Below, piece after piece: positions 14,273 through 18,465 of a DNA stretch of 64,000 nt. Under the pieces are notes generated by a model. That model made no database searches. It saw only the letters and a program-made list of their open reading frames with translations, and was not told the origin of the DNA. The stretch is from Nitrospirota bacterium (GTDB lineage Bacteria; Nitrospirota; Thermodesulfovibrionia; Thermodesulfovibrionales; JdFR-86). Made by a program: the position numbers and the translations under genes. The first letter of the stretch is position 1. Each line of letters opens with the position of its first letter. Location of the stretch: contig CAVRJY010000004.1 in assembly GCA_963721805.1 (NCBI GenBank), positions 224,001 to 288,000 of the forward strand, read 5' to 3'.

Positions 14273-15601
14273 ATGTTTGTATCGAAGACGAGGCTAAAGG
14301 AGGCAGAGCGCCGGGGGGAGGCGCTGCAGGGAGATCTGGAGGCCGCGAGGGCCGAGGCCGCGCTATATCGCGAGATAGCCTGCTGCTCGAAGGACGAGTT
14401 TCTGGCGGTCATCGACGCCTCGGGCGAGCTCGTATTCGCGAACGACCGCGCGAAGTCTTTCACCGGATTCGACTCGGTCCTGCGCGAGCTCCGGGTCGGC
14501 AAGAATGAGATCGCGACCGACGAGTTCCGTCTCGTCGTCAAGTCACGGCCCCTCTCGGGCGGGCTCACCGCATACTCGATGTCCGAGGCCGTGATCGTCG
14601 GGGGCGACACCGAGATCATCAACCTCCACCAGGACAGCATCCGAAGCGCGCTGGCCGGCTCGCAGCAGGTCCTAAGCGGGATGCTCGGCAAGTTCGAGGA
14701 GATGATCGAGGAGGCGCGCGACACCGCGCAGAAGGCCACCGAGGGCATCGAAACCTCCGAGGCGATGAGCGGCGGGGTCGAGAGGCTCTCCGCCCTGATG
14801 GACGACGCCAGCCGCCTGATGCAGTCGCTGGGCGAGCGCGGGGACGCAATATCGAGCGTCATCACGCTGATCAACGACATCGCCGAGCAGACGAACCTCC
14901 TTGCGCTCAACGCGGCGATAGAGGCCGCGCGCGCGGGCGAGCAGGGCCGCGGCTTCGCGGTCGTGGCAGGCGAGGTCAAGAAGCTCGCCGAGCGCACCTC
15001 GAAGGCCACCTCCGAGATCCGCACCGTGGTGCAGGGCATGCAGGCCGAGATAATCGAGTCGCGCCGAAGTACCTCGGACATCCACGACATCGTCGGGCAG
15101 ACCAGCGCGAACATCATGGACTTCGGCCACAAGCTCAGCTCGTTTCAGAAAAACTCCTCGCGCGCGGTCTTCGAGGTCCTGGACGTGAGCAACCGCATCT
15201 TCGTCACCTTGGCGAAGATCGACCACGTGGTATTTAAGAACAACGTCTACGCGTTCCTCTTCGGCCAGGCCGACAGCTACAAGCCCGTAGATTTCCATAA
15301 CTGCCGCCTCGGGAAGTGGTACTATGAGGGCATAGGCAAGCGCAGGTTCAGCACCGTGCCCTCCTACAAGAGGCTGGAGGCCCCGCACTCGGTCGTGCAC
15401 GAGGAGGCCAACGCCCTCGTGGCCGAATGCGGCCACGGCCTCAAGGGGCGCTGCACGATCTCGGAGATCGAGGGCCGCATCCGACGGATCGAGGCCGCGA
15501 GCGCCGAGGTCGGCGCGTTCCTCGACAAGATGGTCGAGGAAAAGACCAACGAGCTGATGAAGATGGCGGTAGAAGAACTCTTCAAGGAAGGCAGGAGGTA
15601 G
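14273..15601 (+). CDS. Cytoplasmic methyl-accepting chemotaxis protein with C-terminal CZB zinc-binding domain
   Basis: No TM helices; [30 protein letters not shown] hairpin tip; CZB ligands IDHVVFK, CRLGKWY, PHSVVH. Confidence 0.9.
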
Positions 15602-15609
15602 ACGCGCCG

Positions 15610-15981
15610 ATGATCAACGTCATGGTCATAGACGACGAGCCGCAGATCACCTCGATGATCGAGACGGCCCTCGCGGCCAACAAGGAGCTGCAAGTCTCGG
15701 CCTACAACAACCCGCTAAACGCCATAGCGGCCCTCGCAAGCCGCAGCCCCGACGTCGTGCTGCTGGACATCATGATGCCCCAGATGGACGGCCTTAAGGC
15801 CCTCGACGCGATCAGGGAGAAATGCCCGCGGGCGAAGGTGATCATGATAACCGCGTACTCCACACTGGATAGGGTGCTTTCGAGCCACAAGAAAGGCGCG
15901 CACGACTTCATCATAAAGCCCTTCGACAGCCTCGCGGCCATCGAGAAGAAATGCCTGAGCGCGGCCATCGCCAAGGACTGA
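15610..15981 (+). CDS. Single-domain response regulator
   Basis: VIDDE, LLDIMMPQMDG, MITA, FIIKPF. ATG after AGGAGG. Confidence 0.9.
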   Translation: MINVMVIDDEPQITSMIETALAANKELQVSAYNNPLNAIAALASRSPDVVLLDIMMPQMDGLKALDAIREKCPRAKVIMITAYSTLDRVLSSHKKGAHDFIIKPFDSLAAIEKKCLSAAIAKD

Positions 15982-16058
15982 CCGGGCCACAGACATAAAA
16001 TGGAAAGGGACCCGGAGGCCCCTTCTTGTTTGTCAGTAACGCCGCCGGAACCGGCGGC

Positions 16059-16078
16059 AGGCGGCCTAGCAGCCGCCT
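16059..16078 (-). promoter_or_regulatory. Candidate SECIS hairpin of the zinc-ribbon gene
   Basis: UGA-AGCCCGAU-AGGCGGC-UGCUAG-GCCGCCU: 7-bp stem, loop G 17 nt after the UGA. A second hairpin (GCCGCCGG-UU-CCGGCGGC, 16041-16058) follows. Confidence 0.55.
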
Positions 16079-16257
16079 ATCGGGCTTCAGCCACCGCCGG
16101 AGCCGCCAAGCAGGCTCCCGAAAAGCGAATCCGACCCGTGGGATACTACGTTGTAGCCCCCGCAGACCGGGCAGCAAAGCTCCTCTGACGAGACGACCTC
16201 GCCGTCCTTGAGCTTAAGCCTGCTTCCGCACTGCAGGCAAAGGTATTGTTTTGCCAT
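16066..16257 (-). CDS. Small zinc-ribbon (FmdB-like) protein, probable selenoprotein (TGA at 16087-16089)
   Basis: Absent from the ORF track. MAKQYLCLQCGSRLKLKDGEVVSSEELCCPVCGGYNVVSHGSDSLFGSLLGGSGGG-U-SPIGGC*. Two CxxC pairs; GGAGG SD inside the end of the ArsR gene; ATG 3 nt after the ArsR stop. If TGA is a true stop, the gene is 16087..16257 (56 aa). Confidence 0.75.
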
Positions 16258-16260
16258 TTC

Positions 16261-16671
16261 TTATTTGCCTCCTGATTTAACTTTTTTACGGCGTTTATCC
16301 ATGTATGCCAGAAAGGTCTTCATGTCGCAGCGTCCGGTCTTCTCCTGGAACTCCCGGCAGTCCGCGAGGCTCTTGAGGTCGAGGCCGTAGGCGGCCGCGT
16401 CCTTTAATTCGTCCCTGAGCACCTTCATGACCGCGCGGGCGCGGGGCGGAAGGCGTTTTTTAAGCACGTAGAACACGAGCTTCCCGTCGCGCCGCTCGTC
16501 GACGAGCCCGGCCGCGTCCAGCATGGCCATGTTGCGCGAGACCAGGGGCTGGGAAATCCCGAGCACCGCCATGATCTGGCATACGCAGAGTTCGGCCTCC
16601 CCGAGGAGCATCAGCATCCTCAGGCGCGTCTCGTCCGCGAAAAGCTGGAAGAACCTTGCCGTGTCTTTCAT
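16261..16671 (-). CDS. ArsR/SmtB-family metalloregulatory repressor
   Basis: F..LADETRLRML, ELCVCQI (alpha3 Cys site), SQPLVSRNM..L..AGLV..RRDGK.VFY; two further Cys in the C-terminal extension. Confidence 0.93.
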   Translation of the reverse strand: MKDTARFFQLFADETRLRMLMLLGEAELCVCQIMAVLGISQPLVSRNMAMLDAAGLVDERRDGKLVFYVLKKRLPPRARAVMKVLRDELKDAAAYGLDLKSLADCREFQEKTGRCDMKTFLAYMDKRRKKVKSGGK

Positions 16672-16708
16672 ATAAACCAATTATAATTCGTTTATCTGGC
16701 CGATGTCA
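16672..16708 (-). promoter_or_regulatory. Sigma70 promoter with an overlapping palindromic operator for the ArsR operon
   Basis: TTGACA-N18-TATAAT, then 8 nt to the ATG with no SD. Inverted repeat ATAAACGAATTA/TAATTGGTTTAT (11 of 12 matching, 16672-16695) centred on the -10 box. Confidence 0.8.
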
Positions 16709-16743
16709 AATCCCGGGGCCAGCCCGATGGCCGCAATACGCCG

Positions 16744-18465
16744 CTATCTGCTGGCCTCCACGCGGGCGATCAGCCTCCTTGCGCGCTCGGCCCCGGCCTC
16801 GGCCCCGAGCGCCTCGTAAAAACCCAGCGACTGCCTGAGCCTGAGCAGCGCCTCGTCCATGTTGCCGAGTTCCGCAAACAGCCCCCCGATATTAAATAGC
16901 GCATACGCCGCGCCCGCGCGGTCCCCGGCCGAAGCGAACGCGTCGAGGGCCGAGATGAAGCCCCTCAGCGCCGAGTCGGTATCGCCCGCCCTGCCCCGAA
17001 TCGCCGCGAGGTTTACAAGCGCGCCGGCCTCGCCCTGCCTGTTTCCGGCGGCCCGGAAGCCCTCGAGCGCCTCGTCCAGGCAGGCGGCCGCCTCTTCAGT
17101 CTCGCCGCGGGCCATGCGTATCGAGGCCGCTGTCATCAGCGTCTCGGCCGCGCCCTGCGCGTCACCGGCACCCCGTGCAAGCTCTATAGAACGCGTAGCA
17201 CAGTCAAGCGCGGCCTCAAGCTCGCCCATGGCCTGATGAAGCCCGGCCATGTTCGCGAGCACAACCGCCTCGACCTGCGGGTTATTAGCCTCGCGCGCCA
17301 GTACGATGGCATCGTTGAACACCGCCATCGCGCCCCTGGCGTCTCCCATGCGCGCCGCGATCAAGGCATACTGGTTAAGGAAATCCGCCTCCGAGTTTTT
17401 AAGGCCGAGCCTGCGGCTCACCTCGATGCCCTGGCGGCACTTCCTGAGGGCCATGTCGCGGCGGCCCTCGATCTCAAGCACGCTTATGAGCTTTCGGACG
17501 AAGCCCGCGAATTCCTTGAGCATCGCCTCGTCGCGCATTGCATATTCATAGAGGTTCTCGGCCGCGACGATCGGGTCCGAGGCCATGAAGCCCTCGTACG
17601 CGAGCTTGTGGCTCCTGACCGCGTCCTCCGCGCTGAGCAGCCCGGAAGCGAATCGCCGCAGCGCGGGGTGCATCGTATAGAGGCCGCCCTCGCGCCTGAG
17701 CATACGCCGCGCAACGAGCCGGTCAAGGGCTGGTTGCACCGCCTCGCCGAACATCCTGTATATGTCCTCGGCGGTAGCCGGGACCATCAGAACCGATAGC
17801 CGCGCAAACAAAAAACGGCCCTCTTCATCGAGCCCCTCATACGCGGACTGAAACCAGTTTTCATCGCACGCCAGCCCGCCCGCCGCGGCGAGTTCAATGC
17901 CAAGCGGAAGACCTATGGGACAGCCGTCGCACTCTTGGCCGCTTACGGCGCGATAGAGCGCCGAGGCCTCTCCGGGCGGCATCGGGCCAAGCCTAAGTCC
18001 TTCGACTCCCGGCACCTCGACGTCGTTCGTAATCATGGCCATGGAGCCCTTCGGCAGCCTGGAGACGAACTCCGTGATCTCACCGGCCTCGGGCACGGAC
18101 TCAAGCTCGTCGATCACGATCAGGGAGGGCTTCGCAACCAGCGCCTCATTCAGCCGGGCCATCTTCCTTGGGATATCCTGCCCGGCGGCAGCATCGCCCG
18201 TTAGCGCACGAAGCAGTAAGCCAAGCAGGCTGTCAAGCCCCATCACCCTCTCTGCTATCGGCTCGATCCCCGCCCCGGCCCATATGACGGAGAGCGCGGC
18301 AGCCTCCCGCATCCTGCACCCTGCCGCTCGAGCGAGGCTGGTCTTGCCGATGCCCGGCTGTCCGCTGATGCATATTGAGTGACCGCCTTTCAGCGCCGCC
18401 TCGATTTTGCTTAGCTCGGCCTCCCGGCCCGTAAACCATGGCTGAGGCACCTCAATTGGGTTCAA
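16744..18465 (-). CDS. STAND (NB-ARC-like) ATPase with C-terminal TPR array
   Basis: FTGREAEL, P-loop GQPGIGKT, Walker B LIVIDELE, GLPLGIELAA, YTMHPALR (MHD-like), then several TPRs. TTG start after AAGGAG. Confidence 0.85.
   Translation of the reverse strand: MNPIEVPQPWFTGREAELSKIEAALKGGHSICISGQPGIGKTSLARAAGCRMREAAALSVIWAGAGIEPIAERVMGLDSLLGLLLRALTGDAAAGQDIPRKMARLNEALVAKPSLIVIDELESVPEAGEITEFVSRLPKGSMAMITNDVEVPGVEGLRLGPMPPGEASALYRAVSGQECDGCPIGLPLGIELAAAGGLACDENWFQSAYEGLDEEGRFLFARLSVLMVPATAEDIYRMFGEAVQPALDRLVARRMLRREGGLYTMHPALRRFASGLLSAEDAVRSHKLAYEGFMASDPIVAAENLYEYAMRDEAMLKEFAGFVRKLISVLEIEGRRDMALRKCRQGIEVSRRLGLKNSEADFLNQYALIAARMGDARGAMAVFNDAIVLAREANNPQVEAVVLANMAGLHQAMGELEAALDCATRSIELARGAGDAQGAAETLMTAASIRMARGETEEAAACLDEALEGFRAAGNRQGEAGALVNLAAIRGRAGDTDSALRGFISALDAFASAGDRAGAAYALFNIGGLFAELGNMDEALLRLRQSLGFYEALGAEAGAERARRLIARVEASR

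Follow-up and report, generated by a model that had tools for sequence, protein, structure and literature searches.

In a 64,000-nt stretch of DNA from a Nitrospirota bacterium of the Thermodesulfovibrionales (assembly GCA_963721805.1, contig CAVRJY010000004.1, positions 224,001 to 288,000; hereafter the window), an arsR gene is directly followed by a short gene, here called the mini-gene, in which a zinc ribbon and a glycine-rich linker lead into an in-frame TGA. Comparative evidence indicates that the mini-gene is very probably a genuine selenoprotein gene in which UGA-57 is read as selenocysteine (Sec), and a single in-frame TGA is retained by some 60 homologues, all told, in related genomes of the Nitrospirota. 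It is also probable that the gene is controlled by ArsR, as the conserved linkage described below suggests, and the explanation that we find best for the locus as a whole, an ArsR-controlled selenoprotein bearing an arm for a thiophilic effector, has in our estimate a somewhat better than even chance of being correct. The elements of the locus are the following.

16709..16680, minus strand: sigma-70-type promoter, with TTGACA at 16709-16704, an 18-nt spacer and TATAAT at 16685-16680
16698..16669, minus strand: candidate ArsR operator, CAGATAAAC-N12-GTTTATATG, a 9-12-9 arrangement with 8/9 complementary positions
16671..16261, minus strand: arsR, 136 aa, with ATG at 16671 and TAA at 16263-16261
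16272-16268, minus strand: Shine-Dalgarno sequence GGAGG of the mini-gene, within the 3' end of arsR and 10 nt ahead of the ATG
16257..16066, minus strand: mini-selenoprotein gene, 63 codons (16257..16069) and TAG, encoding an FmdB-like zinc ribbon
16089-16087, minus strand: in-frame TGA, candidate Sec57, with SPIGGC (16086-16069) and TAG (16068-16066) downstream
16025..16004, minus strand: terminator-like hairpin of 9 pairs, -15.7 kcal/mol, with the T-rich tail CCATTTTATG

The mini-gene starts 3 nt past the arsR TAA (ATG at 16257) and encodes MAKQYLCLQCG...CCPVCGG...GGSGGG, then U57-SPIGGC, with two knuckles, CLQC (C7, C10) and CPVC (C29, C32), ahead of the Gly-rich linker GGSGGG. Purine runs resembling a Shine-Dalgarno sequence are also present upstream of mini homologues, and the layout makes it most likely that arsR and the mini-gene are co-transcribed and translationally coupled, with the hairpin at 16025..16004 as the likely end of their transcript. 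ArsR scores above the cut-offs of PF01022 (HTH_5; 53.7 bits against 22) and NF033788 (78.2 bits against 55), and it carries ELCVC at residues 27-31, in the α3 helix, together with additional cysteines at positions 105 and 115 in a C-terminal extension. The promoter matches the consensus at 12/12 positions (1 such site found, against 0.2 expected in shuffled sequences). A palindrome, ATAAACGAATTA|TAATTGGTTTAT (16695..16672, 11/12 complementary), lies inside the candidate operator, which covers the -10 hexamer and whose end coincides with the arsR ATG, so that the arsR mRNA is probably leaderless. The first-pass annotation of this DNA had reported a reading frame 3 nt past the ArsR stop, preceded by GGAGG and running through CLQC, CCPVC, a linker, TGA, SPIGGC and TAG, behind an ArsR with ELCVC and two C-terminal cysteines and a consensus promoter overlapped by an 11/12 palindrome; each of these elements is present at the coordinates given above.

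The reading of the TGA as Sec draws first on the genome itself, which encodes selB (380 bits), selA (576 bits), selD (356 bits) and tRNA-Sec (71 bits), all above curated cut-offs; the selD gene has one in-frame TGA of its own. A six-frame search of this genome and 40 relatives recovered a mini homologue in 11 of the 41, and in all 11 the aligned codon is TGA, after which come x-P-x-(x)-x-C and a stop, with one gene ending in TPFV. A profile built from these 11 homologues and run against 401 genomes of the phylum gave one TGA in each of its 13 best rows, and among 20 further loci that were read, 16 have the form G-U-x3-5-C-stop, two are ambiguous and two are Cys forms. Mini matches also occur in 33 of 50 genomes with TolC-type ArsR operons (the operon types are described below), with exactly one TGA in each of the 31 strongest rows.

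Past the TGA, the frame stays open for 4-7 codons and then reaches a stop in every gene read. The proline at U+2 is encoded by all four of its codons (CCC in 7 genes, CCT in 5, CCG in 4 and CCA in 3), the glycine codons of the tail also vary synonymously, and the terminal cysteine of the tail, among 27 genes, is TGC in 23 and TGT in 3, with the stop directly following that cysteine in 26 of the 27. By this codon evidence the tail beyond the TGA is under selection at the protein level. Furthermore, in an explicit alignment U57 and P59 fall on the G-C-x-P motif in the tails of 10 FmdB proteins of the Cys form, and selB was found in all three of the Sec-form genomes searched for it but not in the two Cys-form genomes searched (99% and 96% complete). 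The mini profile matched 397 entries in a representative library of 1.8 billion proteins; 95 of the best 150 of these, which were examined, are short proteins, and of these 95, 54 end in ..GG(G), as if the gene calls had been cut at the UGA, and 23 have C-x-P tails. The features by which bacterial selenoproteins are recognized through comparison, namely conserved coding sequence past the UGA, Cys homologues, a hairpin and selA, selB, selD and tRNA-Sec, are thus found together here, bearing out the first-pass proposal of a hidden zinc-ribbon mini-selenoprotein, which had pointed to the Sec machinery and to the residue, tail and hairpin of homologues at position 57 as the places to look.

Two adjacent hairpins follow the UGA, and either might serve as the selenocysteine insertion sequence (SECIS).

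16078..16059, minus strand: hairpin 1, AGGCGGCU-GCUA-GGCCGCCU, -14.8 kcal/mol, with the TAG in or beside the loop
16058..16041, minus strand: hairpin 2, GCCGCC-GGUUCC-GGCGGC, -15.6 kcal/mol, directly after hairpin 1

None of 200 shuffled sequences folds as well as either hairpin, and both pass the published energy rule. Hairpin 1 has a UGA-to-loop spacing of 15-16 nt and a loop of GCUA or UGCUAG, in which a G lying 17 nt past the UGA is followed by C and not by G or U. Hairpin 2 has 6-7 bp, a loop of GGUUCC or GUUC and a spacing of 34-35 nt. By the published rule for bacterial SECIS elements (bSECIS), which places the loop 16-37 nt from the UGA, hairpin 2 falls within the range and hairpin 1 is marginal, at its lower edge. 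The loop of hairpin 2 starts with GGU, as in the family, and its spacing is comparable to those of the selD gene (about 32 nt) and of a canonical FmdB paralogue (28 nt) in the same genome. The SECIS of the window is hence more likely to be hairpin 2, as judged by loop and spacing, with hairpin 1 as the alternative; the original proposal of hairpin 1 was right as to its position and its loop G at 17 nt, but the family-like loop belongs to hairpin 2 and hairpin 1 is only a marginal candidate.

In the homologues the structure is more uniform. Each of the 26 analysed shows a short hairpin beginning within the terminal stop or immediately past it; the loop lies 18-24 nt from the UGA (29 nt in one), and its centre reads G-U/G-N in 25 of them. 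Under one uniform rule, stems of 5 bp or more carrying a G-G/U loop occur in 23 of 27 genes, compared with 8% of 10,800 windows drawn at random from these loci. A first MAFFT alignment of the post-UGA sequences, which was not centred on hairpins, gave no consensus structure. In an alignment that excludes the window and centres each sequence on its best hairpin, a procedure that in itself favours pairing, the share of paired cells is 77%, compared with 57% for shuffled sequences, and none of 500 shuffles comes up to it; covariation scores 0.518, compared with 0.203 in shuffles, compensatory changes are seen in 7 of 8 pairs, and sliding the pair partners lowers all measures of pairing and covariation. 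Four loci with no glycine within the two residues before the U (L025, L029, L059, L060) stand outside the hairpin analysis, and the hairpins of L025 and L029, judged by eye, fit the family pattern. The tandem hairpins and unusually long spacing of the window make it a natural test case for the geometry of bacterial SECIS elements.

The association of the mini-gene with ArsR extends well beyond the window. In species-representative genomes 115 relatives of this ArsR were confirmed, and 80 of them were taken for the analysis of neighbourhoods. By record title, their hosts are Nitrospirota/Nitrospirae in 77 of the 80 cases (Nitrospiraceae, Nitrospira, Thermodesulfovibrionales, Dissulfurispiraceae and Sulfobium), with one from Chloroflexota and two labelled 'bacterium'. 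The cysteines of the repressor are almost invariant in an alignment of 90 sequences (C29 in 89; C31, C105 and C115 in all 90). Most of the 78 ArsR homologues examined for it have TTGACA and an AT-rich region laid out in the same way ahead of the gene, and in homologous loci CATATAAAC-N12-GTTTATATG, or a near variant, occupies the corresponding position and ends at the arsR ATG. In nearly all of the ArsR homologues (L063-L142) the ATG is the last triplet of the palindrome and there is no room for a Shine-Dalgarno sequence, which suggests that the arsR mRNA may be leaderless throughout the subfamily. ArsR of this same four-Cys subfamily is linked to a mini-gene in 33 of 37 informative loci, with 8 more cut by contig ends, in agreement with the expectation that homologues of the mini-gene would follow arsR.

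The operons themselves take three forms. In the 80 neighbourhoods, the gene after arsR encodes a TolC-like protein in 52 and a 4Fe-4S membrane protein resembling NapH in 26; two have neither of these. The mini-gene stands straight after arsR in the window and in one other genome (G003); it follows arsR and the Fe-S membrane protein gene in five loci (G020, L067, L070, L091 and L095); and it closes an ArsR-TolC-adaptor-RND array in 7 of 10 and 19 of 28 loci, at 6.2-6.9 kb from arsR and, in the loci read for it, behind a gene for a YgaP-like transmembrane protein. In two loci (L095 and L104) the NapH-like gene after arsR appears interrupted, with first open reading frames (ORFs) of 70 and 55 aa, where frameshifts or assembly errors are possible. 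In G003 (L023, about 1340-2258), a gene for an ACR3 arsenite efflux protein (237.6 bits, partial at the contig end) is divergent from the arsR-mini pair; it is the sole direct link to arsenic found, the usual ars genes being absent from all other loci. A 71-aa ORF that is also divergent from arsR-mini in G003 has a sub-threshold match to NF049942 (DF family (seleno)protein; 41 bits against 70). Set beside these operons, the window pair is a shortened version of a regulon that is conserved among Nitrospirota of the Thermodesulfovibrionia type. The description of a minimal two-gene system given in the first-pass annotation hence holds for the window and for G003, but the usual operon is larger and includes TolC, adaptor and RND components or the NapH-like protein.

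The genome under study has a single ArsR of this subfamily, and the two-gene unit of the window therefore stands alone. Its neighbours, the first two of them known by ORF translation alone, are as follows.

15427-15981, plus strand: CheY-like response regulator gene, converging on the mini-gene
14273-15601, plus strand: methyl-accepting-chemotaxis-like gene, preceding the response regulator gene
16744-18465, minus strand: ORF of 573 aa that opens like a P-loop NTPase and contains TPR-like repeats, ending just upstream of the arsR promoter

The 573-aa ORF looks unrelated to the operon. With the response regulator gene on one side and this ORF on the other, no arsB, acr3 or arsC was found in the window operon when the flanking genes were read, just as the first-pass annotation had stated.

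Several observations weigh against this account of a Sec-containing, ArsR-controlled ribbon, some of them touching the Sec and its SECIS and others the linkage or the family. No Cys form was seen inside the ArsR-linked subfamily, all Cys forms being canonical MPIYEY-type FmdB proteins. In the window, the hairpin that resembles those of the family stands 34-35 nt past the UGA, a distance that in relatives is 18-24 nt, and the nearer hairpin lacks the G-G/U loop. When a covariance model of the homologues was run over the 64-kb window, neither hairpin reached an E-value of 10 and the best matches lay elsewhere, at E-values of 0.13-10; the four best of 20 such off-site matches have no Sec context and look like chance. 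Hairpin 2 is the best local match to the model, at a weak 5.6 bits, the model being too short to decide. Furthermore, no ArsR was found within 6.5-9 kb of the mini-gene in four genomes (G002, G006, G343 and G412), and Fe-S-type ArsR operons mostly lack the mini-gene, which is present in the DNA read for 4 of 26. The RND pump of the longer operons is a generic ACR_tran protein that scores 487 bits on multidrug models against 294 bits on CusA/CzcA, both below cut-off; since its scores are higher on the multidrug models, a metal substrate is not indicated. Lastly, the mini-protein falls below both FmdB cut-offs (TIGR02605, 15.9 against 31.3 bits; PF09723 Zn_ribbon_8, 17.2 against 34.4 bits).

In the mechanism that we propose, an autoregulated arsR would repress the arsR-mini unit through the palindrome over its own promoter. 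A thiophilic effector, which could be a metalloid or soft metal or else a reactive form of sulfur or selenium, would reach the cysteines of ArsR and repression would be lifted. SelB and tRNA-Sec would then decode UGA-57, guided by the hairpin just 3' of the tail, and the resulting flexible selenolate/thiolate arm (U-x5-C in this protein and U-x4-C in most of its relatives) would capture or reduce the effector. In the two-gene form the effector might be buffered by the mini-protein, and in the longer operons it might be passed on to an efflux or redox partner. That the arm itself binds or reduces a thiophilic effector is a tentative part of this scheme, to which we give rather less than an even chance.

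A different function for the same selenoprotein is the chief alternative, albeit an unlikely one. The mini-protein would then be a redox protein, its U...C arm cycling between selenol/thiol and selenenylsulfide and acting on oxidized or persulfidated cysteines of ArsR, on the pump or Fe-S partner or on reactive sulfur or selenium species, and ArsR would sense redox state or persulfides in the manner of BigR/SqrR. The ELCVC α3 site of ArsR is, however, best known from sensors of As(III), Sb(III) and Cd, the G003 pair adjoins ACR3, and the operon has no gene for a thioredoxin fold or a reductase. The second cysteine that lies 4-6 residues past the Sec in 26 of 27 genes, and is mostly missing from Cys forms, fits a resolving residue, and thiol-type redox selenoproteins typically pair the Sec with a nearby cysteine (2026 review, Table 1). 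Partners for such chemistry could be seen in the YgaP-like protein beside the mini-gene in pump operons, which belongs to a family named after a membrane rhodanese, and in the NapH-like Fe-S membrane protein of other operons; the hosts, going by their lineage names, are related to sulfate or sulfur reducers. Weak matches of ArsR to BigR (41 bits) and TsoR (42 bits) point the same way, but they fall far below the cut-offs of 155 and 115 bits.

It is improbable that the mini-protein acts instead as a co-sensor or anti-repressor of ArsR, binding the dimer or delivering or removing its effector. ArsR and the mini-protein are the constant elements across the three operon layouts while the other genes vary, they stand alone in the window and in G003, and the name first given to FmdB was that of a putative regulatory protein, a point that concerns the family name only. 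Against this, most Fe-S-type ArsR operons lack the mini-gene, which implies that the repressor works without it, and four mini-genes have no ArsR nearby. A complex prediction of two ArsR chains with the 56-residue product, made without alignments and with the tail absent, scored 0.00 and gave no support, a result that speaks neither for nor against binding. The idea that the peptide is a RiPP (ribosomally synthesized and post-translationally modified peptide) or bacteriocin precursor exported by the pump is rejected, given that the operons read contain no modification or peptidase genes and that its N-terminal part is a folded ribbon and not a leader.

Most improbable of all is that the TGA is a plain stop, in which case the product would be a zinc ribbon of 56 residues with GGG at its end, the tail would be untranslated and the hairpins would be structures of the transcript end. 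Gene callers do end the protein at the TGA, at 56 aa, as in the 54 representatives that finish in ..GG(G); the hairpin spacing of the window is atypical; and in a few homologues (G005, G002 and G121) a T-run after the hairpin could also terminate transcription there. Most hairpins, however, have no T-run; in the window neither candidate hairpin is followed by one, and a terminator-like site lies apart from them. The loop motif and the constant spacing are features of SECIS elements and not of terminators. A plain stop would likewise leave unexplained a frame that stays open for exactly 4-7 codons in every gene read, tail Pro, Gly and Cys residues preserved through synonymous changes, and a cysteine at the TGA position in Cys-form relatives, those tested being without selB. 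Another genetic code or read-through to Trp is ruled out by the complete Sec system and by Cys as the paired residue in relatives.

As a selenoprotein, the mini-protein is to be placed as a divergent FmdB-like (Zn_ribbon_8) ribbon that forms a distinct ArsR-linked subfamily with Sec in every member seen. Its close homologues grade into FmdB, with 10 of the 11 matching TIGR02605 and two of them above the cut-off. An AlphaFold model of the mini-protein shows three short strands and a disordered tail at a mean predicted local distance difference test score (pLDDT) of 63.5, which is too low for a fold search, and the ESM Atlas returned just unnamed or unrelated zinc-ribbon clusters (0.88-0.90). 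Sec tails are not confined to the mini-proteins, canonical MPIYEY-type FmdB genes of the phylum also carrying tails of the form ...GGGU-G-x-S-S-C. In the genome under study, one canonical FmdB gene (L157; C1 257011-257160, minus strand) has a Sec tail that reads ...GGGGGU-GVSRGCGC and then TGA, with 8 tail codons and a hairpin, CUGAG-CGUGA-CUCGG, about 28 nt past the UGA; the two other canonical FmdB genes of that genome (L156 and L158) have ordinary tails. Elsewhere, the FmdB tails ...GGG-TGA-G-A-TGA (L048, in G222) and ...GGG-TGA-G-S-stop (L056, in G091) may be plain stops or 'UXX-star'-like Sec.

Sec normally replaces only those cysteines that are critical for catalysis or as ligands, and the Sec/Cys exchange therefore marks the tail cysteine of FmdB (G-C-x-P) as its likely functional centre. 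This is a clue to a very widespread family without known function; the open-access portion of the literature that names the family appears to contain no functional study of FmdB. A broader and more speculative idea, which we regard as rather unlikely at present, is that FmdB-like ribbons are 'fishing-rod' carriers, in which a rigid ribbon holds out a Gly-rich arm whose single (seleno)cysteine captures thiophilic species. The selenium-tipped form would then have been taken up in Thermodesulfovibrionia as the cytoplasmic capture and hand-over module of an ArsR-controlled efflux system and, where it stands alone, a buffer akin to a seleno-metallothionein. If true, this would provide a first function for the FmdB family and a selenoprotein metallochaperone feeding an RND pump.

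The tail-Sec FmdB-like zinc ribbons are probably an uncatalogued selenoprotein subfamily within a conserved ArsR regulon, to judge from the catalogues searched. Table 1 of the 2026 review (119 families) has no tail G-U-x-P...C on a zinc ribbon and includes just the first-knuckle UxxU form of FmdB. Searches of open-access text found no description of a tail-Sec subfamily, within a scope that leaves out Haft and Tolstoy (2025) and the BSepDB family table, either of which could list it. For annotation, this amounts to a missed selenoprotein subfamily, whose genes are truncated by gene calling at the Gly run before the UGA (54 of the 95 short matches). It also defines a testable regulon of one ArsR subfamily, a conserved operator, an efflux pump and a selenoprotein in environmentally important anaerobes, which allows direct tests of the use of selenium in metal(loid) or sulfur stress.

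Among known systems, the closest is FmdB itself (TIGR02605 CxxC_CxxC_SSSS; PF09723), which shares with the mini-protein two N-terminal CxxC motifs about 18 residues apart and a low-complexity Gly/Ser tail. The canonical tail G-C-x-P corresponds to G-U-x-P in the mini-protein, which differs in lacking the MPIYEY start and in scoring below the cut-offs of both models. Selenoproteins of an 'FmdB family' were predicted computationally in Global Ocean Sampling (GOS) data, with 2 Sec sequences and 807 Cys homologues (Zhang and Gladyshev, 2008; PMC2398784), and their Sec lies in the first knuckle (MPIYEYSUQEUG and ...KCSNUG; PMC2398784, supplementary file 2). Reviews of 2022 and 2026 give FmdB selenoproteins as UxxU or CxxU, and under the rule of the 2026 review a different Sec position makes a distinct subfamily. 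The mini-protein belongs to the same domain family, but its first knuckle is CLQC, its four knuckle cysteines are intact and its Sec lies in the C-terminal arm. NF041197 (CxxC_Se_CxxC) comprises small proteins with two CxxC motifs and one Sec, as in the mini-protein, but the member encoded in the same genome has its Sec between the CxxC motifs. That gene (L031; C1 483129-483284, minus strand) scores 42.9 bits against a cut-off of 40, with the TGA between the two motifs. NF041197 gave no match to the mini-protein at E-values up to 1, and NF041211 likewise gave none.

In the position of its Sec, the mini-protein resembles small selenoproteins from metal or organometal contexts, namely HgcB (GVGU), SaoC (Cys-Sec-COOH) and the UXX-star families, which have the Sec on a C-terminal tail that is proposed to be a metal ligand or a mobile redox arm (2026 review). 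Like them, it has a Sec a few residues from the C-terminus, a flexible stretch and transport or resistance genes as neighbours. It differs by its zinc-ribbon scaffold and its motif G-U-x-P-x(1-2)-G/S-C, and no sequence relationship to them was found, their models being absent from the matches listed. The thioredoxin reductase of animals has a tail of comparable form, Gly-Cys-Sec-Gly.

On the side of the repressor, plasmid R773-type ArsR responds to As(III) through an α3 helix with ELCVCDLC. The window ArsR resembles it in its HTH_5 domain, its ELCVC motif and a palindromic operator over its own promoter, which makes it autoregulated by layout, but it lacks the third cysteine (ELCVCQIM) and has the conserved C105 and C115 of its C-terminal extension instead. 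The gene pair as such recalls SmtB/SmtA of cyanobacteria, in which an ArsR/SmtB repressor controls a small Cys-rich metal-binding protein. Both pairs place an ArsR-family repressor beside a Cys-rich protein of about 60 residues with a zinc-finger-like fold, and a two-gene unit of this layout could serve to buffer a thiophilic ion. The window genes, however, are co-directional and coupled, not divergent, and where SmtA holds a multi-metal cluster, the mini-protein offers one ribbon site and a single Sec/Cys arm and is encoded, in most of its relatives, by the last gene of an efflux operon.

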